Positions 13,353 through 35,623 of a stretch of DNA of 37,477 nt are shown here, piece after piece. Made by a program: the position numbers and the translations under genes. Numbering within the stretch: the first letter of the stretch is position 1; the number at the start of each line of letters is the position of its first letter. Below the pieces are notes generated by a model that saw nothing but the letters and a program-made list of their open reading frames with translations, had not been told where the DNA came from and made no database searches. The DNA comes from a virus, in the IMG/VR virus record IMGVR_UViG_3300045988_063029, positions 1 to 37,477 of that record. One strand, given 5' to 3'.

Positions 13353-13371
13353 TTTGTCAGAGTCTGACAAA
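13353..13371. repeat. Palindrome copy a: TTTGTCAGAGTCTGACAAA
   Basis: A perfect 9+1+9 palindrome lies in the 38-nt spacer between the TMP stop and the Dit start. It is one of six copies. Confidence 0.95.
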
Positions 13372-13372
13372 A

Positions 13373-16114
13373 TCAACGCCCTCTGAATCGTTTGCTTGTG
13401 ATCCTGTTGTTATTAATTCCTTTTTCTGCCGTTTTGACGATGTATGCGTCAAATTCATGATTGCCAACTTGTACAGTTACTGCATTGTTCAGATTCACAC
13501 TCGCTCCTGCTGGCTGTAATCCGTTCAGGTTTGTTGTGATACCTGTGTTCATTTGATCCGCAACGCTTTGCATTGCATCTTTTACCTTGTACACGTTCTT
13601 GTCAATTCCTTTTGCAAGTCCGTCCATAAAGTCCGGCATCCATGTCTCATAATCCCTTAATGGTCCTTCGTCTGGCCGTGAGAAATGTAGGAAACTTCTG
13701 ATCTTTCCGGCTAATCCTTTGACTCCTTCTACAATCTTATTGATCCCTGAAAAGATTCCGTTTTTTAATCCATTGATGAAATCAGATCCCCAATGATAAG
13801 CAGATCTTGCAAGGCCAAGTATAAATCCTTTAATTGTATTAAACGGACCTTTCACGATTCCGGCCAAGGTTGATACAACTGTTTTGATTCCTGATTTCAT
13901 TTTTGTAAATGCTCCAACTGCTACGCTTTTAATCGTGCTTGTTACAGTCGTGATCACACTCCTTATTCCATTAAATACTGTGGTGATCACTGTTTTAATT
14001 GCATTGACTACTGTTGTGATCGCTGTCTTGATTCCATTCCATACCGTGGTGACTACTGTCTTGACTGCATTGAATACAGTAGTTACTACTGTCTTGATCG
14101 CATTGAACACCGTTGTGATTACTGTCTTGATCGCATTAACTGCCGTTGTGATCGCTGTCTTGATTCCATTCCATACCGTGGATACAAACGTTTTCACTGC
14201 ACCGAACACCGTCATAATTACACTGCCTATTGCATTTACTGCACTTGATACAGCGCTTTTTACAGCATTCCATATATTACCAAGAAATGCCGTAATCGTA
14301 CTCCAGTTTCGTATAATTGCTATTACTGCTGTAATTGCTGCAATTACTCCAGCTACGATCGGCAAGAACGGTACAAGCGCCGTGGCCGAAAACGTTGTAA
14401 AGATCGTCATGATCGCAGCTATCGCTGGCGCTAATGTCGTAAACAGTGCAATCAATCCTGTAATTGCTATAATGACCGTTTGTATCGGTCCCGGTAATGA
14501 TCCGAATGCCTGTGCTATTGTTGATATAACATTAACAATAGGTTGTAGAGCTGTAACAATCTGTGTTCCAATCGGAATCAGGCTGTCCTGTAGCTTTCTG
14601 AGTGCTCCTTCCCATTTTTCTCCTGGTGTTTGCTTACTCATCTCCTTCGCTTTGCCCGTTACGTTGTCAAAGTCATTTCCAACTCCAAACAGCGCAACTG
14701 ATGCGTCGATACCTAAGTCTTCAAACTGTGTGGATAGTGTAGATAAGGCTTCTTGTTGTTCTTTTGGTGACATCTTTTTCAGGTCGTTCCCGACGCTTGC
14801 AGCAACGTCCTTGACCGTTGCTTTTCCTTTTTCCCATTCCCCAAATACTTTCTTTGTATTTGACGAAAAGTTATTGATATTCCCTTTAAACGTTCCGTCA
14901 CCCAAACGAATCTGAAACTCTTTCAATGCATCTGCTGCCTTATCTGTATTCATCGCTCCGTTTTCCATTCCGTTTTTCAGGAGCTGGAACATTTCTTTTC
15001 CTGAGTATCCGGCAGTTTTGAATAACGGCGAATACTCGTTGATCGTGTCCATAAAATCATCGGATGAGTTTAATCCGTTTTTATATCCAGCCGCCAGCAA
15101 GTCCATTGCTTCTTTACTGGATAAACCAAAATTTTTCATCAGCTTTCCAACAGCGACTGTGTTTTCTTTTACGTCTGTTCCAGTTCTTTTGGAGATTATT
15201 GCGAGCTGTCCGGCAACTTTCGAAAGATCTGTATCGTTCAGATCTGACATATTTTGCTTGACTGCGATGATGGCATCTGCTGCTTCATTTGCATCTTCCA
15301 CGACGCCTTGTTCAAAGACTTCCTGCGCGGCTTTTCCATATTCCTGTGTCTTTTGCTTCGACACATCAAGATTCGCCGCTATCTTTTGCTGGGCACTCTG
15401 CATATCATTTGCGGATTCTACCGCGCTTGATCCAACTTCTTTGATCTTCTCGCCAACAGCACTTAAGTTCTCCGCAGCTGTCATGATTGTTTGAGCACTT
15501 ATATTTTTTCCGATTCCACTGAGTTTTTCTGATGCCGTTTCGGATTTTTCGCCTAACTGTTCCAGTTTTTGTTGTGTTGCTACGATCTCTCGTTGTAGCG
15601 CATTGTACTGTTCTGGATTGATTGGTGCTCCAAATTCTTCTGTTACCTGCTTGGCTTCAGTTTTTAATCCTGATAATTTGTTTTTTGTTTCTGTTATCTC
15701 GTTTTGCAGCGCATTATACGCATCTGTATTTATCTCCCCTGCATCTTTCATGCTCTGCTGTTCATTTTGTAAGTCTTTTAATTTCTCCTTTGTTTCTGAT
15801 ATTTCTTTCTGAATCGGGTCGTACTTCGCCTTCCACGCATCGTAATTATCCGCAGATTTTGACACCTCTTCGTTTGCTTTTTTCAGCATCTCCAGTTTAT
15901 TTTTTGTTTCTTCTGCTGCCTGTGCCAGAAGTGTCTGCTGCTGCCTTAATAATTCTGTATTTCCTGGATCAAGTTTTAACAGACGGTCAACATCTTTCAA
16001 TTGAGCTTCGAGGCTGCTAATATTCCCATTGATTCCAGAAAGTGCTTTATCGAGTCCTGTCGCATCACCGTTTAATTCAATCGTGATTCCTTTTATATTT
16101 CTTCCTCTTGCCAT
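13373..16114 (-). CDS. Tail tape measure protein
   Basis: The 913-aa ORF has a coiled-coil N-terminus, a hydrophobic central segment and an 11-aa periodic repeat block (TVxNAIKTVxT, about 13909-14281). It sits after the G/GT chaperones. Confidence 0.9.
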   Translation of the reverse strand: MARGRNIKGITIELNGDATGLDKALSGINGNISSLEAQLKDVDRLLKLDPGNTELLRQQQTLLAQAAEETKNKLEMLKKANEEVSKSADNYDAWKAKYDPIQKEISETKEKLKDLQNEQQSMKDAGEINTDAYNALQNEITETKNKLSGLKTEAKQVTEEFGAPINPEQYNALQREIVATQQKLEQLGEKSETASEKLSGIGKNISAQTIMTAAENLSAVGEKIKEVGSSAVESANDMQSAQQKIAANLDVSKQKTQEYGKAAQEVFEQGVVEDANEAADAIIAVKQNMSDLNDTDLSKVAGQLAIISKRTGTDVKENTVAVGKLMKNFGLSSKEAMDLLAAGYKNGLNSSDDFMDTINEYSPLFKTAGYSGKEMFQLLKNGMENGAMNTDKAADALKEFQIRLGDGTFKGNINNFSSNTKKVFGEWEKGKATVKDVAASVGNDLKKMSPKEQQEALSTLSTQFEDLGIDASVALFGVGNDFDNVTGKAKEMSKQTPGEKWEGALRKLQDSLIPIGTQIVTALQPIVNVISTIAQAFGSLPGPIQTVIIAITGLIALFTTLAPAIAAIMTIFTTFSATALVPFLPIVAGVIAAITAVIAIIRNWSTITAFLGNIWNAVKSAVSSAVNAIGSVIMTVFGAVKTFVSTVWNGIKTAITTAVNAIKTVITTVFNAIKTVVTTVFNAVKTVVTTVWNGIKTAITTVVNAIKTVITTVFNGIRSVITTVTSTIKSVAVGAFTKMKSGIKTVVSTLAGIVKGPFNTIKGFILGLARSAYHWGSDFINGLKNGIFSGINKIVEGVKGLAGKIRSFLHFSRPDEGPLRDYETWMPDFMDGLAKGIDKNVYKVKDAMQSVADQMNTGITTNLNGLQPAGASVNLNNAVTVQVGNHEFDAYIVKTAEKGINNNRITSKRFRGR

Positions 16115-16223
16115 CTGTTGTCCTCAAAATCGCATCAAAAAAAGACACCTTCCGATGTCTTTTTTCTTTGCTTTTATTTAATGTTCGAAACGATGTGTAT
16201 GATTTTATCCGCAAAGTAGTCGC

Positions 16224-16759
16224 TTAGAATCTGTTAAAGTCTTCCTGTCCTGCTTTGTCTGGATAATCATAATCATCATTTTTATTTTCAACCGCCATAT
16301 CCATGATCATTCCTATTGTGAGTTCTTCCAAATCGTTCATGGATAGTCCGATTTGGACACATCTTAAAAGAAACAACGCTGTTGTTACTTCCCGATCAAT
16401 GTCGCGCTCTTTTTTTTTGCATATTCCAACTGCTTGTTGTTCAGATTCCACAATTCAAAGATTTCTGGAAGAATTTGATAAATCGAAAACGTTTCAAAGC
16501 GATCTAACCACTTTCCAATATCGTTCGGTACACGGCTCGGATCTGCATGCTTTGCCATAATGTATGCAATATTTTCAAACATTTCCAAATTTTCAACCGG
16601 GAGCTCGTCCCCTTGTTTTTTCTTTCGATCCATTGCCTTTTTCAGCGCCATCATGTCTTTGAATATATCTTTCCCGAATATATTCCGATACATCCGTGGA
16701 ATCGCAGCACTGGACTTTAATCTGACGTTTTTCCCGTCAATCTTTACTGTCTTTTCCAT
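16224..16759 (-). CDS. Tail assembly chaperone -1 frameshift fusion (gpGT-like)
   Basis: The 16224-16451 ORF is in the -1 frame relative to gpG and overlaps its 3' end. The shift is possible on the A AAA AAA/G run at 16410-16418. This is the conserved G/GT arrangement of long-tailed phages. Confidence 0.7.
16385..16759 (-). CDS. Tail assembly chaperone (gpG-like)
   Basis: The 124-aa ORF lies between the major tail and TMP genes. It ends just after an A9 slippery run. Confidence 0.8.
   Translation of the reverse strand: MEKTVKIDGKNVRLKSSAAIPRMYRNIFGKDIFKDMMALKKAMDRKKKQGDELPVENLEMFENIAYIMAKHADPSRVPNDIGKWLDRFETFSIYQILPEIFELWNLNNKQLEYAKKKSATLIGK
16410..16418 (-). promoter_or_regulatory. Slippery sequence for programmed -1 ribosomal frameshift (A9 on the minus strand)
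   Basis: In the G frame the minus strand reads GCA AAA AAA AAG. The -1 frame reads TGC AAA AAA AAA GAG and stays open to 16224. Confidence 0.7.
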
Positions 16760-16771
16760 CTGATCACTCCT

Positions 16772-17344
16772 TTACGCTGCAACTTCTGGCGCTTCATACA
16801 CGTTGTTAAACCATCCATTATAAGTTGTCTCGTCTGTTTCGTCTGTTGTTTTTGCTTTAACTCTTCCGTCTGCCAACGGAGAAACTGTTAATGATAATGT
16901 CTCTGTTTTTGGTTCGATCGTGTCTTCTTTTGTTTCACTTTCGATTGTTGGGCGTGTTGCCTTGCAGTTGTACAGAACATGACGAATTCCATTGACATCT
17001 CCGTCAAACTGGAACAATAGAGCAAACGATTTAACTGTTGCATCTGCATTCTCTGTCAATACATTTTTTGTATCTTTTGTATCTCCTAAGATTCCTGTCC
17101 TAAAATCATCTGGAATCAACGCCATTTCTAAATCTCCAGAATATCCGTTATTGGTGACAGATACATAATAAGCTACTCCGTCTGCGTAAAATGTACTTGT
17201 GCCTCCCTCTGCATCTAATGATAATGATACGGCCCCAGGAACTGCGACTGGTGTCCCCCATGTTATTTTCCCCTCAGTTTCCGTAATCTCAGCGTAATGC
17301 ACATTTTTCAAATTGAACTTAATCTTGTTTTTACCTTTTTTCAT
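16772..17344 (-). CDS. Major tail protein (phi13-family-like)
   Basis: The 190-aa ORF has the N-terminus KFNLKNVHYAEITE...GTPVAVPGAVSLSLDAEG typical of phi13-type major tail proteins. It lies upstream of the chaperones. Confidence 0.8.
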   Translation of the reverse strand: MKKGKNKIKFNLKNVHYAEITETEGKITWGTPVAVPGAVSLSLDAEGGTSTFYADGVAYYVSVTNNGYSGDLEMALIPDDFRTGILGDTKDTKNVLTENADATVKSFALLFQFDGDVNGIRHVLYNCKATRPTIESETKEDTIEPKTETLSLTVSPLADGRVKAKTTDETDETTYNGWFNNVYEAPEVAA

Positions 17345-17347
17345 TTT

Positions 17348-17668
17348 TTACACCTCCATCTGGTAAAGGACCTCATACATCTGTTCACTATCGATGTACG
17401 TTTCTTCCTTTTCCCAGGATACGTTATAGTTTTTAAATATCTCTTCGATTCTTTCTTCTAGCTTATGATCTTTTTCGTCTGTATATAGTTCAATGCTCAC
17501 AGCGTCGATTACTGCATACACGACACCGTCGGCATAGAAATTTGCGCTTTCTTCATTTATCCATACAATAAACGGCGGATCAACTGCGTTTTCTTCCGTG
17601 AAATGATGGTACTGGAACGGGAGTCCTGTTTCTGCAAGCATTTCTTCAATTCTTTCTTTGCTCATCAT
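17348..17668 (-). CDS. Putative tail terminator / tail completion protein
   Basis: The call rests on position only. This 106-aa ORF lies between the gp10-like protein and the major tail protein, and its start overlaps the stop of the gp10-like gene by 4 nt (17665-17668). Confidence 0.45.
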   Translation of the reverse strand: MMSKERIEEMLAETGLPFQYHHFTEENAVDPPFIVWINEESANFYADGVVYAVIDAVSIELYTDEKDHKLEERIEEIFKNYNVSWEKEETYIDSEQMYEVLYQMEV

Positions 17669-18365: not shown

Positions 18366-18630
18366 CTGCCCACCTTCCGATCTGTAACGAAATGATCTCA
18401 CTTTTGTAATTGTTCCAAAAATCATCTAATGCACCGCTTCTTGCATACATGCAATAATCTAACAATAGTTGTTTTTCTACTGTTTCGTTTTCAAAATCGC
18501 ATGTACCAATTTTTCCTTCAATCGCTGCTTTCCCTCTGGTAATAATGCCAGTGAGCTTTTGTGTCTCACTGGCATCCATATCCCATGTTATATCTAAGTA
18601 GTTTTTTACGTCTTCAATTAACTGTTCCAT
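18343..18630 (-). CDS. gp6-like head-tail connector protein
   Basis: The 95-aa ORF lies directly after the capsid gene. The N-terminus (LIEDVKNYLDITWD...) is typical of this family. Confidence 0.7.
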   Translation of the reverse strand: MEQLIEDVKNYLDITWDMDASETQKLTGIITRGKAAIEGKIGTCDFENETVEKQLLLDYCMYARSGALDDFWNNYKSEIISLQIGRWADAKNKKS

Positions 18631-18640
18631 AGGCTTTTAC

Positions 18641-22045: not shown

Positions 22046-22061
22046 TGCTGCATCACCTCCT

Positions 22062-24731: not shown

Positions 24732-24750
24732 TTTGTCAGAGTCTGACAAA
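24732..24750. repeat. Palindrome copy b: TTTGTCAGAGTCTGACAAA
   Basis: A perfect copy lies in the 500-bp intergenic region upstream of the packaging/late operon. Confidence 0.95.
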
Positions 24751-25035: not shown

Positions 25036-25584
25036 TCAAATGCCAAAATTTAATTTTGATATTGCTTTATCTGTCTGATCCTGTTCCACTCCAATGTATC
25101 TCAATGTGATATGAATGTCAGCATGATTAAACAGTTTCATAAGCATTGCAGCGTCTTTCGTTGCCTGGTACATATGATAGCCGAATGTCTTGCGCATCGT
25201 GTGAGTTCCTAAGTTGTGTACTCCAAACCTCTCTCCTGCTTCTTTGATCGTTTCATATGCCCATTGTCTTGTGATTGGTTTATGTGTCCTCGGATTTTCT
25301 AACAGATATTCAAGATCATCTTTTCCTTTTGTGTATTCTTCTAAAGTCTTCTTCAAGTTCTTATTGATCAGGAAACGCTTTTCTTTTCCTGTCTTCTTCT
25401 CTCTCATGTATATATGATCTTTTTCCCTGACATCTCTGACTCTCAGTTTTAAGATATCTGAAATTCTAAGCCCTGAATAAATACCGGTCACGAACATAAC
25501 ATAATCTCGTTCACTTTTTTCTCTTAAATATCTTGCAATGTCAAGGATCGTATCCATGTCCCTGATCGGTTGCACTGTGTTCAT
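25036..25584 (-). CDS. Small tyrosine recombinase, catalytic domain only (182 aa)
   Basis: The catalytic signature appears complete: GLRISD (Arg), HTMRKT (His-x-x-Arg), NHAD (His) and LRY (Tyr). There is no N-terminal core-binding/SAM-like domain. It is distinct from the 396-aa integrase at the att site. Confidence 0.8.
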   Translation of the reverse strand: MNTVQPIRDMDTILDIARYLREKSERDYVMFVTGIYSGLRISDILKLRVRDVREKDHIYMREKKTGKEKRFLINKNLKKTLEEYTKGKDDLEYLLENPRTHKPITRQWAYETIKEAGERFGVHNLGTHTMRKTFGYHMYQATKDAAMLMKLFNHADIHITLRYIGVEQDQTDKAISKLNFGI

Positions 25585-26533: not shown

Positions 26534-26731
26534 TTACTTCCAATATCCTGCGATGCTGTTTACTTGATGCCACCGTGCTGGTCCTCCTTTTATCAACTCT
26601 TCTATCTCTCTTTCCTTGTTCAATTCATCCATTACGATATATTGGAAATTTGATTTCCATACTTCTACTGTCTTTTTACTTACTCCGATTCTTCGTGCTG
26701 TTTCTTTAATCGACCAATTTCTTTGAAACAT
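26534..26731 (-). CDS. Small HTH DNA-binding protein
   Basis: SIKETARRIGVSKKTVEVW is a convincing helix-turn-helix. No Shine-Dalgarno sequence precedes the ATG, so the start is uncertain. Confidence 0.5.
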   Translation of the reverse strand: MFQRNWSIKETARRIGVSKKTVEVWKSNFQYIVMDELNKEREIEELIKGGPARWHQVNSIAGYWK

Positions 26732-26945: not shown

Positions 26946-27419
26946 TCAGGATTCTTTTGTTTTAGTGCCAGGTAAAGAGCTAAAACGTTTGTCAGAGTCT
27001 GACAAAATCGCATCTAATTCCTGGACTGCTGTCTTATGTTTTCTTAAGATCGTTCTTGTGCTGTATCCCATCTCTTCCGCTATATCTTCCATGGACATGT
27101 ATCGTATGTAATGCAGCACAAGAATTTTCTCATTTTCTTTGTTTTTCATTCGTCTCAAGTTATTTGAAACGTTTTTTTTGTAATCAATCAACCAATCTAT
27201 TTTGTAATTGATGGCTTTCTTTGTATCAACAATCTTTCCAACGATCTCCGCCATCTTGTCATTGTTTTCTTTTGCGGATGGCGCTGCATTGGGGTCAATG
27301 GATCCCGTTGTCTTTGTCGCGAGATCCATATAGCTTTTTGCATCCTCGATCATTGCATCGATTGCATTATCTACCTGTCTGATTTTTCCTAAATATATTT
27401 TTGTCTCTTCAAAACTCAA
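26946..27419 (-). CDS. Sigma-70 region-4-like / ArpU-RinA-type phage late transcriptional regulator
   Basis: The C-terminus (ILVLHYIRYMSMEDIAEEMGYSTRTILRKHKTAVQEL) resembles a sigma region 4 HTH. The TTG start has GGGAGGT 6 nt upstream. Confidence 0.65.
   Translation of the reverse strand: MSFEETKIYLGKIRQVDNAIDAMIEDAKSYMDLATKTTGSIDPNAAPSAKENNDKMAEIVGKIVDTKKAINYKIDWLIDYKKNVSNNLRRMKNKENEKILVLHYIRYMSMEDIAEEMGYSTRTILRKHKTAVQELDAILSDSDKRFSSLPGTKTKES
26988..27006. repeat. Palindrome copy c: TTTGTCAGAGTCTGACAAA
   Basis: A perfect copy lies inside the last codons (ILSDSDKRF) of the late-regulator gene. Confidence 0.95.
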
Positions 27420-28589: not shown

Positions 28590-29444
28590 TTACATTCCCT
28601 CCTGCTGCTTTCTCAGTAACTGTTTTTCCAAGTCGTCAAAATCATAGTCTCTTTGCGTAAAATTATGCTGTATTTGCAGCTTTGGAGCATTTGCTCGTGC
28701 CTTAGGTTCTTCAACAAATTGCTCATATGCTCTATTGATCCATCCATTCAGGAATCGTGGCATACCACGTTTTGTTTTTTGTTTTTGTTTGTTGTTGGTT
28801 AGCCAAGCAAGTGCTTTTCGCATCTGTGCATCAATATCAATACCAGGATAGAGTTGTTCAAATTCTTTCACGTCGTTCTCAGTGACCACGTAATCATCAC
28901 CATTTTTCAATGGCATATGATATTCTCTTGCCCCCTGATAGAGCTGTTTGGAATCTTGACTATCGTTCTCCTGCTTCTGTTGTCCGGCTTGCTCCGGCAG
29001 TATGTTATTATTACTCTTACCTAAACTAACCTTACTCTTACTTATACTGGGGATACATTCTGTATCCAAGTTGTATCCATCTTGTAATTGATCACTTTTT
29101 TGGAACTCATAAGCACCATTTTCATCAATTTCAAGCATCCTCTTTTCTTGTTTATAATCTGTTTCATGATACCGGTCTCTTTGTATGTAGTTATGCATTC
29201 TCCAGTGTTTTACAACAATCACACCAGTATCATCAAATACAAGAATAAATGATTTTGCAATCAAGATATTTAGATCATCTTTGTTGCTTCCAATCATCCG
29301 TTGAATCCTATTGGCATTATTAATGAAACCATCATCATCAGCTCGCATTGACAGGTGAAAATATAATGCTTGAGCTGACAATGGTAAATCTAGAAATGCA
29401 TCTGAATCAATTAATTTCTTATTGAACATCCTTCTGTTCGCCAT
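28590..29444 (-). CDS. Phage replisome organizer (DnaD-like N-terminal domain)
   Basis: RMFNKKLIDSDAFLDLPLSAQALYFHLSMRADDDGF is the characteristic N-terminus of replisome organizers. Confidence 0.8.
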   Translation of the reverse strand: MANRRMFNKKLIDSDAFLDLPLSAQALYFHLSMRADDDGFINNANRIQRMIGSNKDDLNILIAKSFILVFDDTGVIVVKHWRMHNYIQRDRYHETDYKQEKRMLEIDENGAYEFQKSDQLQDGYNLDTECIPSISKSKVSLGKSNNNILPEQAGQQKQENDSQDSKQLYQGAREYHMPLKNGDDYVVTENDVKEFEQLYPGIDIDAQMRKALAWLTNNKQKQKTKRGMPRFLNGWINRAYEQFVEEPKARANAPKLQIQHNFTQRDYDFDDLEKQLLRKQQEGM

Positions 29445-30684
29445 CGTAATCCACCCTTTCTGTCATATCTCTCATGTACTTTTGTAATGCTTCCGTCATA
29501 ACCTTCAGGCGAATCATAGCATCTTTATCTTTAATTTTCGTATTTGGAATTTGCTTTTTTACATATCCCAACACAGTCTTCACATCCTGGAAGGTGAAGG
29601 TTATGCTTCCCAAATCCTCTTCCGACATTTGTTTATTTTCTAAAACATTTTCACAAACATGCTCGCATTCAAGTGTGTACCCACATAATTTGCAACATCC
29701 TGGACATTCTGCAATATTCCTGTTTTGCTTGTATTTCTCTATGATTTCATCAATGTTGCACTCATATTTCTGATTATAAGCACACTTCGCAGTTACTTCC
29801 GGCAGTTGCTTTGTTTCATATCCCGATGGCATATTCTCGCACTGATAGCGGCAACCATGTGCATGATCACACAATCTACAACAACCAGAACATGGTCCAT
29901 TTGTCTGTAAATGCTCCTGCTGCTTCGCAATAAGCTTTGTATGACAAATCTTTGAATCATCATATTTACATTTTGTCTTTTCTTTGAAATCTTCTTTAAT
30001 TTCTTTCACCTGCGACAGCTTAACATCGTCTTGTTCTGCAAGATCTTGCTGTACCTCCTGCGGTAATGTTGCCATTTCGTTCGCAACAGATACTGGAATT
30101 TCGCCCTTTTCAAATTTCTCTTTTGCATTATCAACAAGATTGCGGTTAATGCTCTCTAATTGTGCAATTTTTGTTCCAGAAACACCTAAGATTGTGGATA
30201 TCAATTTACGCATATCAGTAGATGATATCTTTGTCTCATTCTCCTTTGCGTACTGATCGAGTAAGATTCTGAGTTTTTCCGCTTCTTGCATCTTCTCGTA
30301 TTCCGTACGCTCTCGCTGTGTTGAATTGCTCAAGATCAGATTCAACTTCCCAACAGTGCTTGTCGTATCTTCTACAACGCATGGCACAAATTCAAATTCA
30401 TTCATTCCCATTTCTTCTACGTTATAAATCGTCGCCAATCTCCTGCGATGGCCCTCATTTATTTCGTACTCATCAATGTCTGTCTTTTTCACACGTAGTG
30501 GATTCTTGATTTCTCCTGCGATTCTAATTGCAGCCGCAAGCTTCTCAATTCCTTCGGTATCGTAAAAGTTATCGGGGCTTGGTTTCAATTTTGTGTAATG
30601 GATCATCTGCACTCTTGGAGCAGACTTCTTTTTTCCCTGCTGTGGTTTTTGCCCGATGCTATTTAAGACGTCATTCATGTCCAT
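29419..30684 (-). CDS. parB: ParB/Srx-domain protein with HTH and two C-terminal Cys-rich modules
   Basis: The ParB N-domain motif NPLRVKK...YEINEGHRRRLA is present. The gene lies downstream of the ParA-like gene. Two CxGCCxLC-x5-C-x3-CEN modules lie at residues 265-284 and 327-346. Confidence 0.7.
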   Translation of the reverse strand: MDMNDVLNSIGQKPQQGKKKSAPRVQMIHYTKLKPSPDNFYDTEGIEKLAAAIRIAGEIKNPLRVKKTDIDEYEINEGHRRRLATIYNVEEMGMNEFEFVPCVVEDTTSTVGKLNLILSNSTQRERTEYEKMQEAEKLRILLDQYAKENETKISSTDMRKLISTILGVSGTKIAQLESINRNLVDNAKEKFEKGEIPVSVANEMATLPQEVQQDLAEQDDVKLSQVKEIKEDFKEKTKCKYDDSKICHTKLIAKQQEHLQTNGPCSGCCRLCDHAHGCRYQCENMPSGYETKQLPEVTAKCAYNQKYECNIDEIIEKYKQNRNIAECPGCCKLCGYTLECEHVCENVLENKQMSEEDLGSITFTFQDVKTVLGYVKKQIPNTKIKDKDAMIRLKVMTEALQKYMRDMTERVDYDGEQKDVQ

Positions 30685-31419
30685 TTACAGCACCTCCTTG
30701 ATCAATTCCTCAGTGAAATCGTTATAATCAAGGCATGCGTTCTTTGTACTTCTACATTTTCTTAATGGCATTCTACGGTAGGTAGAATAATTTACCGATG
30801 CACAATCTCTGATCAGACTCTTGAATATCGGATACTGATGTCTATTTACCAAATCGATCAGCCCGATCTTATTTGCCTTTGTCGGCTTCCAAAGCGTGAT
30901 CAATACCTTATACTCACAATTTGGTGCAAGATCTAAGATATCTTGGAAGTGTTCATCAAAGAAAGCCAATCCGTTAATACTATTTCTGTCAAGTTTGACA
31001 GGGACAACGCAAAGATCTGCTGCTACAAGAGCAATCTTTGTATAAAGTTCAAAAGTCGGATGGCAGTCGATGATTACGAAATCATATCGATCTTCGCCTA
31101 ACTGATTAATCTGATCTTTTAGTTCTACTGGACTGTAGATCTTAACAAATTCAAGGTGTCGATCTGCCTGTACAATATCAAGATTTTTGAATTTTGTTCT
31201 TCTGATTGCTACTTCAAGGGTATATTTACCTTGTAAAACTCCTGTTAAACTTTTCTTTTTTTCATCGTATTTGCCATAAAAATATGACGCGTTTCCCTGT
31301 GGATCGCAGTCGATCAACAGAGTTTTGTATCCTTTTTCACTCAAATTGTAAGCAAGATTTACCGCTGTAGCCGTTTTACCAACGCCGCCTTTGTAATTCA
31401 TTATTGTTATTGTTTTCAT
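30685..31419 (-). CDS. parA: ParA/Soj-family partition ATPase
   Basis: The deviant Walker A motif NYKGGVGKT is present, followed by LLIDCDPQGN. The protein is 244 aa. Confidence 0.85.
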   Translation of the reverse strand: MKTITIMNYKGGVGKTATAVNLAYNLSEKGYKTLLIDCDPQGNASYFYGKYDEKKKSLTGVLQGKYTLEVAIRRTKFKNLDIVQADRHLEFVKIYSPVELKDQINQLGEDRYDFVIIDCHPTFELYTKIALVAADLCVVPVKLDRNSINGLAFFDEHFQDILDLAPNCEYKVLITLWKPTKANKIGLIDLVNRHQYPIFKSLIRDCASVNYSTYRRMPLRKCRSTKNACLDYNDFTEELIKEVL

Positions 31420-31639
31420 CTTCTTTTTCCTCCATTATCTTCCTGTGAAATCTTTCGAGTTCTTCTCTATTGTGTTTCAGGTGTTTCGTTTCGTTTAAGA
31501 TATAAAGTTCTTCACTTCCGCATCTTGGGCAGACACAGTCAAGTGTGACACTCCAGAATCTCTTTGAACATTTCGAACACAAATTATCCCAAAATGGTTC
31601 TGTAAAATCTGTTATTCCATCTCTGTAAGTACGTTTCAT
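31376..31639 (-). CDS. Zinc-ribbon hypothetical protein
   Basis: CSKC...CPRC form a zinc-ribbon pair. The likely start is the ATG at 31639, after AGGGG. The 3' end overlaps the parA start. Confidence 0.5.
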   Translation of the reverse strand: MKRTYRDGITDFTEPFWDNLCSKCSKRFWSVTLDCVCPRCGSEELYILNETKHLKHNREELERFHRKIMEEKEDENNNNNELQRRRW

Positions 31640-31744
31640 AAACACCCCTTGAAAAAAATTAACGATAATGGTACACTTTTATTAGTTCTAAATATGTACA
31701 TCGTGATTTTTTTCACGTACTAGGCACTCATATGGGTGCCTTTT

Positions 31745-31840
31745 TTATTTGATGTCAACCTTTTCTGCTCTTATAGTTGCTTTTAAAAGCATTTCAATAA
31801 TTTGCGCTGCTTCTCTTGCAGCCTGATAAATGTTTTTCAT
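31745..31840 (-). CDS. Small hypothetical protein (31 aa, amphipathic helix)
   Basis: AAGGAG lies 7 nt upstream of the ATG at 31840. The sequence is MKNIYQAAREAAQIIEMLLKATIRAEKVDIK. It falls below the ORF track cutoff. Confidence 0.4.
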   Translation of the reverse strand: MKNIYQAAREAAQIIEMLLKATIRAEKVDIK

Positions 31841-31851
31841 AGTTAGTCTCC

Positions 31852-32000
31852 TTTTTACTCTTCTGATGATTTACAGAGCTCTCTGAATTTGTATGTAATA
31901 CTGAGAAGGATTTGCTCTGTTACTGTTATTGATGATTTTAAAGGGGGTATTTAGCTGTAGTGTATTTAGAGAGCTCTGTAAATCATCAGAAGTTTTTACT
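31852..32000. mobile_element. MITE-like element: 133 bp with 25-bp perfect terminal inverted repeats and 8-bp direct flanking duplication
   Basis: CTTCTGATGATTTACAGAGCTCTCT (31860-31884) has its exact reverse complement at 31968-31992. TTTTTACT lies immediately outside both ends (31852-31859 and 31993-32000). The element contains no ORF. Confidence 0.6.
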
Positions 32001-32002
32001 GT

Positions 32003-32266
32003 CTACAAAATCTTGCGTATTTTTAACCGATTAATCTCGTTTTTAAGTTGCTGCAGCAATTCCATTTTTACAGTCTGCGCATATTGTGGATCTGAATGCA
32101 TCTCAAGGTTTTCTGCGAATGTATCAATCTTATCTCTCAGGATGCCGTATGTGTCTGAGCTGTCTTTTAGCTGTTGATATAGTGCGCATTTCTCAATTGC
32201 ATGTGTTCCTGCATGTCGTTTTGCTAATGCGTAGAGTGATATATCTTTCTGTTTCATCTTTTTCAC
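32003..32266 (-). CDS. Hypothetical protein
   Basis: The 87-aa ORF runs in the early-operon direction and overlaps the upstream gene by 4 nt. Confidence 0.55.
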   Translation of the reverse strand: MKKMKQKDISLYALAKRHAGTHAIEKCALYQQLKDSSDTYGILRDKIDTFAENLEMHSDPQYAQTVKMELLQQLKNEINRLKIRKIL

Positions 32267-32532
32267 GCTCCTTTAAAGACGATATCTTTCCAGGATGGTT
32301 CTATCCCTTCTTTTTCTTCAAATTGGCTCATTGGGATTCTGATCAGCTTGCCCATTCGCAAAGCCTGAATTTCTCCGCTCTTTACCATCTTTGTTACAAA
32401 TGACTGGGAACAGCTCATTTTCTCGGCAAATTCTTTTGGAGAGAGATACTGTTCATTTTTCTTTTGCTCTTTCAATTCTCTGATTTCTCTTTCGAGCTGT
32501 TCAACTCTCTGTTCCAAATACATTCCTTGCAT
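32263..32532 (-). CDS. Excisionase-family (MerR-like) HTH protein with N-terminal coiled coil
   Basis: LSPKEFAEKMSCSQSFVTKMVKSGEIQALRMGKLIRIPMSQF matches the excisionase-type DNA-binding domain pattern. Confidence 0.65.
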   Translation of the reverse strand: MQGMYLEQRVEQLEREIRELKEQKKNEQYLSPKEFAEKMSCSQSFVTKMVKSGEIQALRMGKLIRIPMSQFEEKEGIEPSWKDIVFKGA

Positions 32533-32545
32533 CTTTTTCCCTCCT

Positions 32546-32773
32546 TTATTTAGATGTCTCAGTTTCTGGAAAAGGTAATTCTTCTGTTTTTCCTTTTTTA
32601 TCTGGATATTCTTTTAATCCAGTCATCATTTCCCTGATGTATTTATGCGGTACATCGCACTGAATTGCGTTCATCATAATTTCTGCTTTTGCCCCTTCTC
32701 TCATTAATGTATACAGTTTTGACATCATGATTTCTGTTCTATCTTCTTTACTAAATGCATCTACAAGACCCAT
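32546..32773 (-). CDS. Hypothetical protein
   Basis: The 75-aa ORF has GGAGG upstream (TTGGAGGAAAAATAATG). Confidence 0.55.
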   Translation of the reverse strand: MGLVDAFSKEDRTEIMMSKLYTLMREGAKAEIMMNAIQCDVPHKYIREMMTGLKEYPDKKGKTEELPFPETETSK

Positions 32774-32801
32774 TATTTTTCCTCCAATCTATTTTCTCTT
32801 A

Positions 32802-32948
32802 TTATTTAAATATTTCATTTAAACACAAAAACATCAGCATATATATAATCACCGAATTTGCTCTTGTCATTGGTTCCACTCGTGTTATTAAATATTCTAT
32901 AAAGGTTGCGCTTATTAATGCTATAACCGACATTATTGCTATTTTCAT
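32802..32948 (-). CDS. Possible small membrane protein (48 aa)
   Basis: GAGGT lies 4 nt upstream of the ATG. Two hydrophobic segments are present (MKIAIMSVIALISATFIEYLI..., ...SVIIYMLMFLCL). It competes with a plus-strand 76-aa ORF that has no RBS. Confidence 0.3.
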   Translation of the reverse strand: MKIAIMSVIALISATFIEYLITRVEPMTRANSVIIYMLMFLCLNEIFK

Positions 32949-33035
32949 TTCTACCTCGCTTGTCAAGTTCTTTTTCCTCGTATAATTTGCTTACAGGGCA
33001 CTGGCATGTCCGAGTTTTATGAAAGGAGTTATTAT

Positions 33036-33212
33036 ATGGATAAAATATCTATTGATCAGCTTCGTGAAAACCTAAATGACTACTCTGCACATTTACAACG
33101 TTTCCAAGCTGATTCTAATGCTGATTCTGATTCTATAATCTTGTTTGATGAACTAGCTAAATATCATCACTATATGATTTCCGATATTATTGATTATCTG
33201 GATCAGCTTTAG
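33036..33212 (+). CDS. Small acidic hypothetical protein (58 aa), oriented against the early operon
   Basis: AAAGGAG lies 7 nt upstream of the ATG at 33036. A TTGTCA ... TATAAT promoter-like pair lies at 32960-32986, with a short 15-nt spacer. Confidence 0.45.
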   Translation: MDKISIDQLRENLNDYSAHLQRFQADSNADSDSIILFDELAKYHHYMISDIIDYLDQL

Positions 33213-33357
33213 TTTCTTGTTCTGTGTCATCTACTAGTTCGACACCAATCGCAAATTGTAGATGATGCAGAATCTTTGATGCTTCTTCTATCATCTTCTT
33301 TGCTTTATTTAATTCTTCTAAGGTCTCGTTTTTTCCAGTTATTTTTAAATACATCAT
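33187..33357 (-). CDS. Small hypothetical protein (56 aa)
   Basis: AGGAGGTGAG lies upstream of ATGATG at 33357. The gene runs in the early-operon direction. Its 3' end overlaps the plus-strand ORF by 26 nt. Confidence 0.45.
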   Translation of the reverse strand: MMYLKITGKNETLEELNKAKKMIEEASKILHHLQFAIGVELVDDTEQETKADPDNQ

Positions 33358-33473
33358 TTTCTCACCTCCTGGTACTGTTACTACTGGTTTTCGGTAAAAA
33401 TCGGTAGTGTTGATTACTGGTGTTTCTACTCTTATTTATTGTATTATTATTTTATACTCCTTTTAGTAGTATT

Positions 33474-33671
33474 TTATAATAAAAAAATATCAGGAAAAAG
33501 TTTTTCAGGTGGTTCTTTATACAGTCTACATATTTTTGCAGCTAATAAAATGCTTGGGTTTCTTTGGCCTAGTTCAATTTTTGACAGGCAATCTTGAGTA
33601 ATTCCTAATTTATCAGCGATAACTGTCTGTGATTGATCGCCACGGCTTAATATTAATTCCGTTCTTTTCAT
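33474..33671 (-). CDS. Cro-like XRE-family HTH regulator
   Basis: The 65-aa protein has the HTH QTVIADKLGITQDCLSKIELGQRNPS. It is divergent from the repressor gene, and its RBS is AAAGGAGA. Confidence 0.8.
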   Translation of the reverse strand: MKRTELILSRGDQSQTVIADKLGITQDCLSKIELGQRNPSILLAAKICRLYKEPPEKLFPDIFLL

Positions 33672-33704
33672 CCTGTATCTCCTTTCTTTTCTTTTGTTAC
33701 TCTT

Positions 33705-33780
33705 ATAATATACTACAAAAAGTAGTATGTAAATACTTTTACAACTTTTTGTAGTTTTTATTTTACTACTTTTTGTAGTA
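33705..33780. promoter_or_regulatory. Genetic switch: three TACTAC-N5-GTAGTA operators and the early (cro) promoter
   Basis: O1 is at 33711-33727 (perfect), O2 at 33741-33755 (ACAAC-N5-GTAGT) and O3 at 33764-33780 (perfect). The minus-strand promoter has TTTACA (33728-33733), a 17-bp spacer that equals O1, and TATTAT (33705-33710). Confidence 0.7.
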
Positions 33781-33804
33781 AAATAATGAAAAAGAGGTGA
33801 TAAA

Positions 33805-34221
33805 ATGCGTAGAATTGCTATGTTAAGAAAAGAAATGGGTATGAATCAAATGGAATTAGCAAAATATTTAAGATTATCCCAACAAACTATAAGTAAATAC
33901 GAAAACGGAAAAGCTGACCCAGACAAAGAAACTTTAATTAGATTATCCGAATTATTTAATGTCTCTACTGATTACATTATTGGGAACTCAGATAAGCGTG
34001 ATCATTCAGAGTTAACATATAAAGACAATCGTAATATAGCAAAAACCCTAGACGTGCTTAAAGATCAGGTAGACAACAACGAAAGTGGTGAATTAAATTA
34101 TAACGGGATTGAAGTTACAGATGATGATGCCGAGCTTCTTATGGATGCTCTTGATATGGCATTACGTCGGATAAAAAAGAAAAATAAAGAAAAGTATACA
34201 CCTAAAAAATATAAAAAATAA
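33805..34221 (+). CDS. CI-like XRE-family repressor (no S24 peptidase domain; ImmR-like)
   Basis: The N-terminal HTH is MNQMELAKYLRLSQQTISKYENGKADP, with RBS AGAGGTGA. The gene is divergent from cro and co-directional with immA-like and int. Confidence 0.8.
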   Translation: MRRIAMLRKEMGMNQMELAKYLRLSQQTISKYENGKADPDKETLIRLSELFNVSTDYIIGNSDKRDHSELTYKDNRNIAKTLDVLKDQVDNNESGELNYNGIEVTDDDAELLMDALDMALRRIKKKNKEKYTPKKYKK

Positions 34222-34222
34222 T

Positions 34223-34241
34223 TTTGTCAAAGTCTGACAAA
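34223..34241. repeat. Palindrome copy d (one mismatch): TTTGTCAAAGTCTGACAAA
   Basis: The copy starts 2 nt after the repressor stop and ends 20 nt before the exonuclease-BRCT start. Confidence 0.9.
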
Positions 34242-34260
34242 GAATAGGAGGATTGATATT

Positions 34261-35322
34261 ATGCCAATAACTATTTCATTTAATCAAGAAACTGGCTCTA
34301 TTTCTGTCGAAAGTGAAAAACTCTTAAGTTCAAAGCGAAATAAAGGAAATAGTCTTTTAGATTTTCCTCAAAATTATACTGTAATTGATATCGAAACTAC
34401 TGGTTTAGATCCAAATTTTGATTCAATAATTGAAATCGCAGCTATTAAAGTTGTTAATAATTCTATTGAATCAACTTTTTCTTCCCTAGTAAAGCCTCCA
34501 GTAATTGAATATGACGAAGAATATGACGACTGTGATTTTTTATCTGATGATGATGGGCACAAATATTATTATGTTGATGATTACATTTCTAAGCTTACGC
34601 ATATCACAAATGAAATGTTAGATACTGCACCAGAAGTTAAAGATGTGTTAGATAATTTTGTCAATTTTATTTCCGATGATATTTTAGTAGGTCATAACGT
34701 CAACTTTGATATCAATTTTTTATACGATAATCTTTTGGATTATTGTGATTATAAATTGACCAATGATTTTATTGATACCTTAAGATTATGTCGTCGTTTA
34801 CATAAAGAACTCACTCATCATAGACTTTCTGACATGGTAGAGTTCTATAAAATAGATACTTCTTCTGCGGCTCATCGTGCTCTTTCTGATTGTGAGACTA
34901 CGAATAAATTATTTGAAAGATTACATGATTCAATGTTAGAACAATTTGAATCATTGGATAATTTTAAACTTTCTTTAAAAAGAAAGCGTAAAACATTAGA
35001 TGTCAATTCAATTACAACATCCAATGAAAACTTTAATACCTTACATCCATTGTACCGAAAAGTTTGTTGCTTTACAGGAAAGCTTGAAAATCTCCAAAGA
35101 AAAGATGCTATGCAACTTGTCGTAGATCTTGGCGGTATTGTAGCTAATTCTGTTACTAAAAAAACAAATTATCTTATTCTCGGTAACAATGATTACTGTC
35201 CTACTATTAAAGATGGAAAAAGTAGCAAACAAAAGAAGGCTGAAAAGTTAAAATTATCCGGACAAGATATTGACATTATTTCAGAAAACACATTTTATGA
35301 AATGCTTAATTATGAACTTTGA
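34261..35322 (+). CDS. DEDDh (DnaQ/epsilon-like) 3'-5' exonuclease fused to a C-terminal BRCT domain
   Basis: The exonuclease motifs are ExoI VIDIETTGL, ExoII GHNVNFDINFL and ExoIII AHRALSDCE. The C-terminus FTGKL...RKDAMQLVVDLGGIVANSVTKKTNYLILG is BRCT-like. The RBS is TAGGAGG. The gene is visibly more AT-rich than its neighbours. Confidence 0.8.
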   Translation: MPITISFNQETGSISVESEKLLSSKRNKGNSLLDFPQNYTVIDIETTGLDPNFDSIIEIAAIKVVNNSIESTFSSLVKPPVIEYDEEYDDCDFLSDDDGHKYYYVDDYISKLTHITNEMLDTAPEVKDVLDNFVNFISDDILVGHNVNFDINFLYDNLLDYCDYKLTNDFIDTLRLCRRLHKELTHHRLSDMVEFYKIDTSSAAHRALSDCETTNKLFERLHDSMLEQFESLDNFKLSLKRKRKTLDVNSITTSNENFNTLHPLYRKVCCFTGKLENLQRKDAMQLVVDLGGIVANSVTKKTNYLILGNNDYCPTIKDGKSSKQKKAEKLKLSGQDIDIISENTFYEMLNYEL

Positions 35323-35348
35323 TGTTATATATTTTTATACAAAATGAT

Positions 35349-35367
35349 TTTGTCAGAGTCTGACAAG
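35349..35367. repeat. Palindrome copy e: TTTGTCAGAGTCTGACAAG
   Basis: The 17-bp core is perfect. The copy lies 27 nt after the exonuclease-BRCT stop. Confidence 0.9.
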
Positions 35368-35604
35368 ATGCAAGTGGAAAAGATAATTTTCAACCCGTTC
35401 CGTAAATATAATCAAAAATAAAGGTTGTTAAATATTGCATTATGTTCTTATGCATTAAAAAAATAGTCGTCCTGTCTCCTGGGAAGAATAGAACGACTGT
35501 TAAGAAAGTTTTTCGTCGGGTTAGATGAATTTACTCCATCTATCGCGCCGACCTCTTCACTAGCTATTATAAACAAATACTTTAGAATTATCAACTAATT
35601 TTAT

Positions 35605-35623
35605 TTTGTCAGAGTCTGACAAA
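35605..35623. repeat. Palindrome copy f: TTTGTCAGAGTCTGACAAA
   Basis: A perfect copy ends 8 nt before the ImmA-like ORF. Confidence 0.95.

Follow-up and report, generated by a model that had tools for sequence, protein, structure and literature searches.

The stoperators of cluster A mycobacteriophages are asymmetric, are oriented with transcription and are bound by the immunity repressor. The IR sites of phage N15 are scattered in the phage genome. These sites of SopB are four separate palindromes, IR1-4, with the form GTGCGACC-NN-GGTCGCAC (PMC7205306), and the title of Ravin, Rech and Lane 2008, as cited in PMC11652158, reports that the N15 Sop system facilitates late gene expression. On plasmid RK2, KorB is a ParB-family CTPase with IncC/ParA as its partner; its OB oligonucleotide, as given in PMC11790492, has the core TTTAGC-G-GCTAAA, and the title of reference 20 of that paper speaks of 12 KorB sites dispersed over the replicon. 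BisD of the Pseudomonas element ICEclc is presented in PMC12409273 as a ParB-like CTP clamp that is loaded at parS-like sites and influences the expression of element genes across tens of kb.

The DNA analysed here (the window, 37,477 nucleotides in full) is an integrated prophage; it ends in 42-bp direct att repeats resembling a tRNA 3' end and encodes a tyrosine integrase, and its relatives also encode integrases. Six copies of the 19-mer TTTGTCAGAGTCTGACAAA, a palindrome of the form TTTGTCAGA-G-TCTGACAAA, are spread across 22 kb of the window. Dinucleotide shuffles gave a mean of 0.02 matches to the 19-mer, and none of the 100 shuffles reached 12 strand-matches. Copy a (13353..13371, exact) lies 1 bp past the TMP stop and 18 bp 5' of the Dit start, a junction at which 4 related IMG/VR contigs have a site as well. 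Copy b (24732..24750, exact) separates the gene of the small tyrosine recombinase from the HNH/terminase packaging operon and is 53 bp upstream of that operon's first small ORF; the same interval in relatives usually holds paired sites, 183-198 bp apart. Copy c (26988..27006, exact) lies within the 3' end of the ArpU/DUF1492 late-regulator gene, which occupies 26946-27419 on the minus strand, and is translated there as I-L-S-D-S-D-K. Copy d (34223..34241, one mismatch, G8A) lies 1 bp past the repressor stop and 19 bp 5' of the exo-BRCT start, and this position is occupied in relatives with different repressors. Copy e (35349..35367, one mismatch, A19G) follows 26 bp past the exo-BRCT stop, and copy f (35605..35623, exact) lies 8 bp 5' of the ImmA-like ORF, where many relatives have a site 6-10 bp 5' of ImmA. 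The preliminary description of this DNA had placed all six copies at the right coordinates and, by the measured distances, beside the right genes; four are exact, and copy d, which it took for the only mismatched copy, shares that state with copy e. It had also put copy c in the last codons of the late regulator, which is correct as to the 3' end of the gene, but the palindrome is actually 42-60 nt upstream of the stop. The positions are mostly gene 3' ends, the flanks of the six copies are without conservation outside the 19 bp, and at copies d and e promoter-like matches do not exceed their frequency in shuffles.

The identical palindrome was found in 63 IMG/VR contigs from the human gut, with 1-7 copies per contig and 4-7 in each near-complete relative. 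The centre base on the plus strand is G in all six window copies, as had been described (the odds of six like orientations being 1 in 32), but this does not hold as a general rule: with the 63 contigs set in the orientation of the window, 62 centres read '+' and 106 read '-', mixed even within single phages, and in more distant relatives it can be any of A, C, G and T. At the position of copy c, the palindrome is invariant in 9 distinct ArpU 3' ends whose proteins are 43-49% identical to that of the window, and the major-allele frequency is 0.99 in the palindrome as against 0.80 and 0.57 in the flanks. Because the site is invariant while the ArpU protein and the flanks diverge, selection appears to act on the DNA itself at copy c. 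In most relatives the ArpU stop comes 1-4 codons past the palindrome. A count of occurrences in genomes, which the preliminary description had proposed, revealed no generic host repeat: across 185,579 species-representative genomes the exact 19-mer turned up in just 30 stretches, the actual host genome of the window not being available for this count. About half of these stretches represent an unrelated Ca. Solibacter repeat, and the matches in gut Clostridia lie in DNA with genes of the phage group of the window.

These observations support the earlier proposal that a dimeric protein binds DNA specifically at these dispersed sites. In the eight near-complete relatives with an identical palindrome, the four HTH proteins then offered as binders are either missing or 31-74% diverged: none of the eight encodes Cro, and the repressor is either missing or has an identity of 34-59%. 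For this lack of conservation among palindrome-bearing relatives, the repressor and the other HTH proteins were rejected. Left out of that list was a ParA/ParB pair at 29419-31419, and it is the recognition helix of this ParB that the palindrome family tracks.

The ParB-family protein (421 aa, 29419..30684, minus strand) is encoded directly downstream of parA in the same operon and comprises an N-terminal ParB/CTPase-type fold, an HTH with the recognition helix SGTKIAQLESINRNL, a duplicated Cys-rich segment and a helical C-terminus. It matched phrog_4715 (E 2e-42) and, with a score of 21.4 under the curated cut-off of 26.3, Pfam ParB_N (E 2.7e-4); its NCBIfam ParB scores are also under the curated cut-offs, and its closest named homologue is 'ParB/RepB/Spo0J, Anaerostipes hadrus', at 82%. 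An AlphaFold model of the protein matched Noc (7nfu, TM 0.72 on target) and also ParB, Spo0J and KorB (8qa9/8qa8), with structural matches that span both the N-terminal and the DNA-binding domains. At the arginine patch GxxRxxA, its GHRRRLA aligns with GERRWRA of M. xanthus ParB 7bnr; in a 23-sequence alignment G78 and R81 do not vary, and H79 and R80 are conserved to at least 90%, and its SNSTQR was aligned to ENLQR. The motif [LFI]G[KR]G[LFI], defined as the ParA-interaction/stimulation motif at the ParB N-terminus (PMC12704722), found no match in the 421 residues. The N-terminus carries a lysine-rich tail, GKKKSAPR.

The ParA-type Walker ATPase (244 aa, 30685..31419, minus strand) abuts parB immediately upstream in this operon. 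It matched phrog_164 (E 3e-55) and Pfam AAA_31 (E 2.7e-39), fell under the curated cut-off of NCBIfam ParA_partition (E 1e-23) and keeps 71-96% identity across all eight near-complete relatives. Upstream of parA lies a small conserved ORF (31376..31645, minus strand; 89 aa as listed, with a likely start near 31637). ParB, ParA, this small ORF, the small recombinase and ArpU are each present in 8/8 near-complete relatives. The parAB genes belong to the presumed lytic early operon and not to the lysogeny module. None of the six copies in the window lies within or beside parAB, the nearest being copy c at 2.4 kb and copy d at 2.8 kb.

We defined the family palindrome as GTC-N-GA-N-TC-N'-GAC and examined 82 loci with ParB relatives. 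Family sites were present in 47 of the 50 loci whose ParB helix reads T[KR][VI]A[QEN], compared with one of the 32 with other helices (p = 5e-18, uncorrected for relatedness and, like the other association statistics, inflated by shared ancestry, with some six independent clades on the positive side and some five on the negative). The three exceptions in the first class are two loci with one-mismatch sites and one short locus, and where the ParB has at least 67% identity, all 25 loci carry the exact palindrome. A second set of 79 loci was fetched with the recombinase and thus picked without reference to ParB; here the family palindrome was found in 8 of the 9 loci with a ParB homologue versus 12 of the 70 without (Fisher p = 4e-5), and several of these 12 are truncated loci or one-mismatch matches. 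Five loci (L135, L137, L139, L165 and L157) hold one perfect family palindrome each, with no ParB detectable in the fetched DNA. The variable base of the half-site tracks the ParB helix as well, AQ going with A and AE with G: ParBs that are 28-36% identical overall and share the TK[VI]AQ helix retain GTCAGA, and two ParBs with TK[IV]AEL have the half-site GTCGGA. C-variant sites (GTCCGA) were seen in three loci with other helices, namely L253, Saumur and Cormatin, the last two being cultured prophages among the 13 induced prophages of the OMM12 consortium, described with host-genome coordinates (PMC10197239). Saumur has a one-mismatch family site between parA and parB (34128) and Cormatin an exact one in the 5' end of parB (28506); sites also lie inside parB in L129 and L261-L282, and such locations are the classical ones for parS.

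Because the recognition helix covaries with the site, we regard ParB as the reader of the palindromes and propose, from sequence comparison, that the six copies are quite probably parS/OB-like binding sites for the ParB-family protein of the same prophage. A ParB dimer would read both half-sites TTTGTCAGA via its HTH, as the covariation suggests, whereas the centre base, as its free variation shows, is not read. As the GxxRxxA patch and the ParB/Noc/KorB fold are kept, binding probably triggers clamp closure, which by homology would be nucleotide-dependent and accompanied by sliding; the motifs seen that bear on CTP binding and hydrolysis and on N-gate closure stimulated by parS are GHRRRLA and SNSTQR. 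With 4-7 sites over a genome of ~37 kb, ParB could be loaded along the entire phage DNA when the parAB early operon is expressed. Together with ParA, it might then position or segregate excised or incoming circular phage DNA; an alternative or added output might be modulation of transcription at the site-bearing gene ends, comparable to what KorB does on RK2, BisD on ICEclc and SopB in N15. In a rough division, ParB binding as such is highly probable; within it, segregation or positioning takes somewhat under half of our expectation, a transcriptional or insulating role about a third, and other functions the small remainder. Since the phage integrates, as its integrase and att repeats indicate, a role in plasmid partition is not obviously needed.

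The alternative that survives best, although we consider it improbable, is that the palindromes act mainly in RNA, where hairpins of 8-9 bp after stop codons would serve in 3'-end protection, processing or read-through attenuation independently of ParB. Most sites indeed lie 0-8 bp past a stop codon between co-directional genes, the transcript stems fold at -6 to -15 kcal/mol, and arm changes between lineages are fully compensated, as would also be expected of a hairpin. However, the folding z-scores are modest (-1.8 to -4.0), one sequence serves oppositely transcribed regions with either centre base, and a function in RNA leaves unexplained both the restriction of the family to one ParB helix class and the site that Saumur and Cormatin have where parA meets parB. 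Weak terminator-like tails, a point in favour, occur at copies c and e only, where a terminator test was marginal, on the minus strand alone and with stems of 3 G-C pairs; a U tract is missing at 4/6 copies. The preliminary description was therefore right that these are not canonical terminators, and intrinsic terminators, defined by a GC-rich stem and a U tract, were rejected. A DNA site may still have a secondary RNA effect.

Next in order, and decidedly improbable in our view, is another conserved binder, be it the small tyrosine recombinase, the ArpU-like regulator, the small ORF upstream of parA or a host factor. In its recombinase variant, the palindromes, comparable to pdif or attC, would be sites of recombination marking the limits of exchangeable cassettes. 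The recombinase (25036-25584), a catalytic-domain-only protein, is found in all palindrome-bearing relatives with 75-100% identity, and its catalytic residues RHR-H-Y (R40, H128, R131, H154, Y163), as read from the alignment, are intact. A site pair usually lies 265 bp downstream of its gene, and in the lysogeny module sites lie on either side of variable cargo genes. Similarity breakpoints accumulate near sites (11 observed versus 2.6 expected), but this enrichment is confounded with gene boundaries, and 58 of the 70 recombinase-bearing, ParB-less loci have no palindrome. ArpU is only 41-46% identical in relatives with an identical site, and helix-site covariation would be unexpected from a host factor. 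The small ORF was rejected as a binder; it is also present without palindromes, with homologues in L141, L142 and L145, loci that have neither ParB nor palindromes. The recombinase also has two invariant lysines, K64 and K67, either of which could be the catalytic lysine.

It is very unlikely that the palindrome is a selfish REP/MITE-like repeat or a chance-expanded microhomology without a dedicated binder. A short palindromic element with unconserved flanks would fit such an origin, as would the independent repetition of the identical 19-mer in Ca. Solibacter genomes, but the sites recur invariantly at the same few homologous positions in phages with diverged flanks, do not occur in the host chromosomes of the species-representative genomes except in phage DNA, and track ParB. 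Least credible of all is silencing of the prophage through stoperator-like sites by the immunity repressor or another small HTH protein: dispersed intergenic sites, one of them directly behind the repressor gene, would fit this reading, but the repressor (33805-34221) has separate operators, TACTAC-N5-GTAGTA, which we confirmed at 33455, 33711 and 33764 as distinct from the palindrome just as first described, the repressors of phages that share the identical palindrome have 27-72% identity or no relationship, one near-identical copy (98%) excepted, Cro is missing as noted above, and the palindromes are symmetric, without orientation to transcription.

A broader extension of ParB binding, which we put forward only as a doubtful possibility, is that the ParA/ParB-CTPase pair is a genome-wide organiser, with exchange junctions and a helix specificity code, in integrating prophages of gut Clostridia. 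If so, the early-lytic parAB would be no plasmid-maintenance device in a widespread prophage group of human-gut Clostridia. ParB would load at 4-7 palindromes at the 3' ends of key genes, where they follow the repressor and the capsid or tape-measure gene, precede ImmA and the packaging operon, or close the late activator gene; sliding ParB would insulate or time transcription units or, after excision, ready the phage DNA for replication and packaging. These palindromes would also serve as exchange junctions for cargo genes of the lysogeny module, and a single helix residue (Q or E, versus other helices) would set the half-site base as A, G or C, providing a simple specificity code for this ParB family.

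Compared with known systems, the window resembles the cluster A mycobacteriophages in having many dispersed copies of one short intergenic motif in a temperate phage. The likeness to stoperators drawn in the preliminary description nevertheless fails on asymmetry, on orientation with transcription and, by inference, on binding by the immunity repressor, for the window motif is a perfect palindrome with the centre as its only asymmetric base and mixed orientation, and the repressor is unconserved. With ParABS (Spo0J/ParB-parS) and Noc-NBS it shares the N-terminal fold, the arginine patch, the HTH domain, a palindromic site and several sites per replicon, and relatives of the window have sites in or beside parB. 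It differs from them in its odd-length site, unrelated to TGTTNCACGTGAAACA, and in that the window protein lacks [LFI]G[KR]G[LFI] and scores below the curated family cut-offs; unlike the replicons that ParABS partition serves, it is an integrated prophage, not an extrachromosomal low-copy replicon. BisD-bisS is likewise a ParB-like protein on an integrating mobile element, but it has two bisS sites and an activator domain working with BisC, and no such domain or partner was identified in the window. N15 is also a temperate phage with ParA/ParB-type proteins that recognise several separate palindromes; unlike the integrated window phage, however, it is a linear plasmid prophage without integrase that uses sop for lysogenic maintenance in Gram-negative hosts, and its SopA is of type Ia with an N-terminal HTH, whereas the window ParA is short (244 aa). 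KorB-OB shares a ParB with a ParA partner and a short odd-length palindrome in multiple copies dispersed over the replicon, and KorB slides from OB sites and regulates genes at a distance. The site, however, is 19 bp in the window and 13 bp in RK2, it lies at gene 3' ends while OB sites are near promoters, the C-terminal half of the window ParB with its Cys-rich repeats is unrelated to KorB, and no KorA-like clamp-locking partner was identified in the window, although no KorA-specific search was made. RK2, moreover, is a plasmid and the window an integrating prophage. Dispersed centromere-like sites are already known from plasmid RK2 and phage N15, and here they would occur in a phage that integrates into the chromosome.

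A scan of the window bore out the six palindrome copies of the preliminary description: the 19-mer TTTGTCAGAGTCTGACAAA is exact at 13353, 24732, 26988 and 35605, and one-mismatch copies lie at 34223 (G8A) and 35349 (A19G), against a chance expectation of 0.02 matches in the shuffled window. The copy at 34223 had been described as the only mismatched one, which the A19G change at 35349 contradicts. The separation of the palindromes from the switch operators stands, as TACTAC-N5-GTAGTA was found separately at 33455, 33711 and 33764. Beyond the 19 bp, the flanks of the six copies have nothing in common.

The window, at 38% G+C, represents a siphovirus prophage of the Firmicutes type. At its right end, the plus strand encodes an HTH_3 repressor (33805-34221), an RNase_T/BRCT exonuclease (exo-BRCT, 34261-35322), an ImmA-like metalloprotease (35632-36072) and a tyrosine integrase (36158-37348). 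The minus strand carries an ArpU/DUF1492 late regulator (26946-27419) and a tyrosine recombinase of 182 aa (25036-25584) that has no more than the catalytic domain, together with the Cro-like gene, the early genes, HNH, the terminase and the structural genes. Positions 1-42 and 37436-37477 form a perfect 42-bp direct repeat, GACTCCAACGAGAATCGAACTCGTGATTCGACCTTGAGAGGG, whose reverse complement resembles the T-arm and acceptor end of a tRNA (the 3' end of a tRNA gene). This repeat probably represents the att core of an integrated prophage whose target was a tRNA gene, in which case the window would be cut exactly at attL and attR; ARAGORN found no complete tRNA within it.

The exact 19-mer recurs in 95 IMG/VR stretches, representing 63 contigs with 1-7 copies each, which look like human-gut metagenomes judging from their sample identifiers. 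A genome-wide count, which the preliminary description had called for against a generic REP-like host repeat, revealed no such repeat: among 185,579 species (one genome each) only 30 stretches contain the 19-mer, and about half of these are an unrelated repeat in high-G+C Ca. Solibacter genomes. Among the non-Solibacter stretches, the contigs that share any genes with the window are six, all from gut MAGs labelled Lachnospiraceae, Clostridia, Anaerostipes, Prevotella or Melainabacteria, and they carry genes of this phage group. The rarity in species genomes and the phage-gene context together argue that the 19-mer is phage-associated and not a generic host repeat. Megablast detected nothing near-identical to the window's DNA among the cultured phages of INPHARED. 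In the Ca. Solibacter MAG contigs (L097-L122, 61-66% G+C) the 19-mer is repeated in three MAGs, with some pairs 64 bp apart; these loci have no genes in common with the window except for one weak 20% match, and the repeat looks like an independent family or a convergent site. Contigs L106, L125 (MAG labelled Prevotella sp.) and L120 (Melainabacteria) carry genes 71-98% identical to those of the window phage, itself of Lachnospiraceae type, and their placement probably reflects binning errors of public MAGs.

When contigs were rebuilt, ORFs called and proteins clustered, the sites fell into few position classes across phages with different structural modules. They occupy the last codons of the ArpU gene; lie 0-3 bp past the stop of the tape-measure gene or of a 334-aa gene, probably that of the major capsid protein; form a pair 183-198 bp apart in the interval from the small recombinase to HNH/terS; or, in the lysogeny module, lie 1 bp past the repressor stop, 6 bp past an integrase stop or 6-10 bp before ImmA. 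The ArpU-class palindrome, which encodes ILS(D/E)SDK, does not vary among nine distinct sequences, even though their flanks diverge (major-allele frequency of 0.99 in the palindrome vs 0.80 and 0.57 in the flanks) and their ArpU proteins are only 43-49% identical to that of the window. An invariant palindrome within diverged flanks and a diverged protein indicates that selection acts on the DNA sequence itself. The G at the centre of all six copies on the plus strand, emphasized in the preliminary description, is true of the window but is not a rule: turned to the window's orientation, relatives have 62 '+' and 106 '-' centres, mixed within single phages, and distant relatives can have any of the four bases there. 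These observations rule out a strand rule arising from the directionality of replication, packaging or recombination, and the six G's have no demonstrable meaning. Which cargo genes the palindromes of the lysogeny module enclose, between repressor or integrase and ImmA, differs from phage to phage. In the window (33805-36072) the cargo is the 353-aa exo-BRCT, which separates the usual repressor-ImmA pair; in IMG/VR loci (L006, L012, L015, L045, L057, L060 and others) it consists of unrelated genes of 343, 535, about 270, 359 and 426 aa. The cargo genes could have a defence function.

Five products are present in all eight near-complete relatives that carry the identical 19-mer, namely ParB, ParA, a small ORF, the small recombinase and ArpU. 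A PHROG scan of the early genes assigned 30685-31419 (minus strand) to a ParA-like ATPase (E 3e-55) and the adjoining 29419-30684 (minus strand) to a ParB-like protein (E 2e-42); Pfam and NCBIfam concur, with ParB scoring below the curated cut-offs. The HTH of ParB is conserved (ILGVSGTKIAQLESINRNL, in an alignment of 23 homologues), and its N-terminus aligns with Myxococcus xanthus ParB (7bnr) such that GHRRRLA stands opposite GERRWRA. Over both the N-terminal and the DNA-binding domains, the AlphaFold model (mean pLDDT 70, confident for residues 20-235) matches KorB, Spo0J and the ParB proteins of three species as well as Noc (TM 0.72 on the target). Since the nearest named homologue (82%) is annotated ParB/RepB/Spo0J in Anaerostipes hadrus, the host is probably Anaerostipes or a related Lachnospiraceae member. 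In the C-terminal half of ParB, residues from about 238 to 345 comprise two copies of a Cys-rich motif, roughly C-x7-C...C-x2-CC-x2-C-x5-C-x3-C, of which shorter homologues have one; this segment is of low confidence in the model, is not a known ParB domain and could bind metal. Near the par genes, a 31-codon minus-strand ORF (31745-31840) precedes a strong 8-bp hairpin, AGGCACTCATATGGGTGCCT (31722-31741), whose T tract is confined to the plus strand. The hairpin sits directly upstream of the small ORF and parA and might be a regulatory boundary ahead of the par genes.

The association between palindrome and ParB was seen in loci picked regardless of ParB. In 79 IMG/VR loci anchored on recombinase homology (51-97% identity), most of which lack the palindrome while the remainder carry variants of TGTC-N-GA-N-TC-N'-GACA, family palindromes occurred in 8/9 loci with a ParB homologue vs 12/70 without (Fisher p = 4e-5); several of these 12 are truncated upstream or have one-mismatch matches. 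Among 78 further loci anchored on ParB, all 25 with a ParB of at least 67% identity have TTTGTCAGA.TCTGACAAA. No ParB was found in the DNA fetched for five loci with a single orphan palindrome (L135, L137, L139, L165 and L157).

Alignment of all 82 ParB homologues further revealed that the recognition helix and the site vary together. The helix TK[VI]AQ[LI][EQ]S accompanies the half-site GTCAGA even in several clades just 28-36% identical overall to the window ParB, as does TRVANMQN (L129), in which parB contains two of the three sites. The half-site becomes GTCGGA with TK[IV]AEL (two loci, L149 and L153) and GTCCGA with TQVGRM (one site, L253), and 31 loci with the helices TK[VI]GTL, S/T-x-I-[GS]-[RK]-L, SQVARL or VQVGRY have none. 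A site is present in 47 of the 50 loci with a T[KR][VI]A[QEN] helix vs 1 of the 32 with other helices (p = 5e-18, a value that ignores relatedness); two of the three exceptions have one-mismatch sites and the third is a short locus. In L261-L282 a site lies 292 bp into parB, which is the classical location of parS. A de novo search of the ParB clades with other helices gave only CTAGTA-TT-TACTAG, present once per locus, some 55 bp upstream of parB, in 11 loci (L232, L236, L237, L239, L242-L246, L252 and L255); these have TK[VI]GTL or a related non-AQ helix and lack the dispersed family, and the palindrome may be a parS of their own or else an operator. From the association and the covariation of helix and site, we conclude that the dispersed palindromes are most likely the cognate sites of the phage ParB.

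Other readings fare less well. It is possible that the palindromes act as RNA hairpins as a side effect, with stems of -6 to -15 kcal/mol; however, weak U-rich tails occur at two copies only, and such a role leaves the link to ParB unexplained. Mosaicism may in part stem from recombination at the sites: 11 breakpoints in the similarity of window and relatives map no more than 25 bp from the copies at 34223 and 35605, vs 2.6 expected, although this enrichment is confounded with gene boundaries. The small tyrosine recombinase, as binder or as part of integron/pdif-like cassettes, was an attractive candidate, being the most conserved neighbour, with intact catalytic residues and two sites downstream. 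Its R, H-x-x-R, H and Y residues (R-H-R-H-Y) are invariant, and so are two lysines that are candidate catalytic residues; the family numbers at least 7,962 relatives in the protein collection. The protein has no core-binding domain, is encoded with the late regulator on one side and the packaging genes on the other, and coexists with a full-length integrase. It was not retained as the main explanation, because the palindrome is missing from most phages with the recombinase. The preliminary description had favoured four HTH proteins (33805-34221, 33474-33671, 32263-32532 and 26534-26731), and none of them held up: they are absent or 31-74% identical in the eight relatives, with Cro absent from all eight, so that the immunity repressor, Cro, HTH_17 and the HTH protein at 26534-26731 are unconserved among phages with an identical site. 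Across palindrome-bearing phages the repressors are mostly unrelated to one another, and identities range over 43-99% for ArpU, 34-100% for ImmA and 75-100% for the small recombinase. No methyltransferase for the constant central GANTC (a HinfI-type site) was found among the window proteins scanned, a set excluding structural and lysis genes. Promoters with CTGACA arms as -35-like elements were dismissed, since promoter-like sites are in total below the shuffle expectation and the -10 at 34223 overlaps the exo start codon, the matches at 34223 and 35349 being 10/12.

Saumur and Cormatin, two cultured and inducible prophages from the OMM12 mouse consortium (PMC10197239), both have ParA and a ParB of the window's family. 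The ParB of Saumur (WAK79578.1), a prophage carried by E. clostridioformis YL32, is 30% identical with the helix TEAQLGRY; one site, TGTCCGATTCGGTCA, lies between parA and parB and departs from the family pattern at one position, and another that fits it exactly is 6 kb away. Cormatin ParB has the helix PKLARLKV and a site, TGTGTCCGAATCGGACACA, in the first codons of parB. The C-terminal segment of Saumur ParB (Clostridium phage Saumur, ON453901.1, 32694-34109), YDDVASGKKSFELRKNDRHYKVGDKLHLLEF, resembles by eye the DUF3850/ASCH-like domain, which is reported to be the only ParB fusion consistently encoded beside parA (PMC12704722). Site sequences of the palindrome family were absent from the literature searched. 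The analysis offers a defined site family, TGTC-N-GA-N-TC-N'-GACA, with a candidate one-residue specificity code for ParB and abundant natural variants in human-gut viromes, and Saumur and Cormatin allow direct testing of the ParB-site prediction. For annotation, it means that the binder of repeated gene-end palindromes in gut prophages can be assigned from covariation alone.

By homology of its arginine patch and CTP-dependent clamp fold, site binding by ParB would probably license clamp closure and sliding. ParB could thereby cover the genome, because six sites on an excised circle of ~37.4 kb leave no gap larger than ~15 kb. Together with ParA, it could position or segregate extrachromosomal copies; alternatively, it could control transcription, as KorB, BisD and SopB do. 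The phage integrates and its parAB genes lie in a presumed early lytic operon, adjoining a DnaD-like loader, which argues against a simple plasmid-maintenance role and raises the question of what use a ParABS system is to an integrating phage. The sites sit at gene ends: they follow the repressor, precede ImmA, close the late-activator gene and lie ahead of the packaging operon. We speculate that this arrangement suits an insulating or timing role.

Compared with ParABS systems, the window has ParA, the ParB fold and the arginine patch, whereas it lacks sites adjoining the operon, the canonical ParA-interaction motif and an extrachromosomal replicon. ParB-CTP clamps have roles beyond segregation, among them gene silencing (KorB), gene activation (BisD) and the tethering of DNA to the membrane (Noc). 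The palindrome system of the window would work like ParB-parS or KorB-OB. Twelve dispersed OB palindromes are described for KorB on RK2 (PMC11790492), transcription control for BisD on ICEclc (PMC12409273) and four IR palindromes for SopB on N15 (PMC7205306), where late gene expression reportedly benefits from SopB (cited in PMC11652158).
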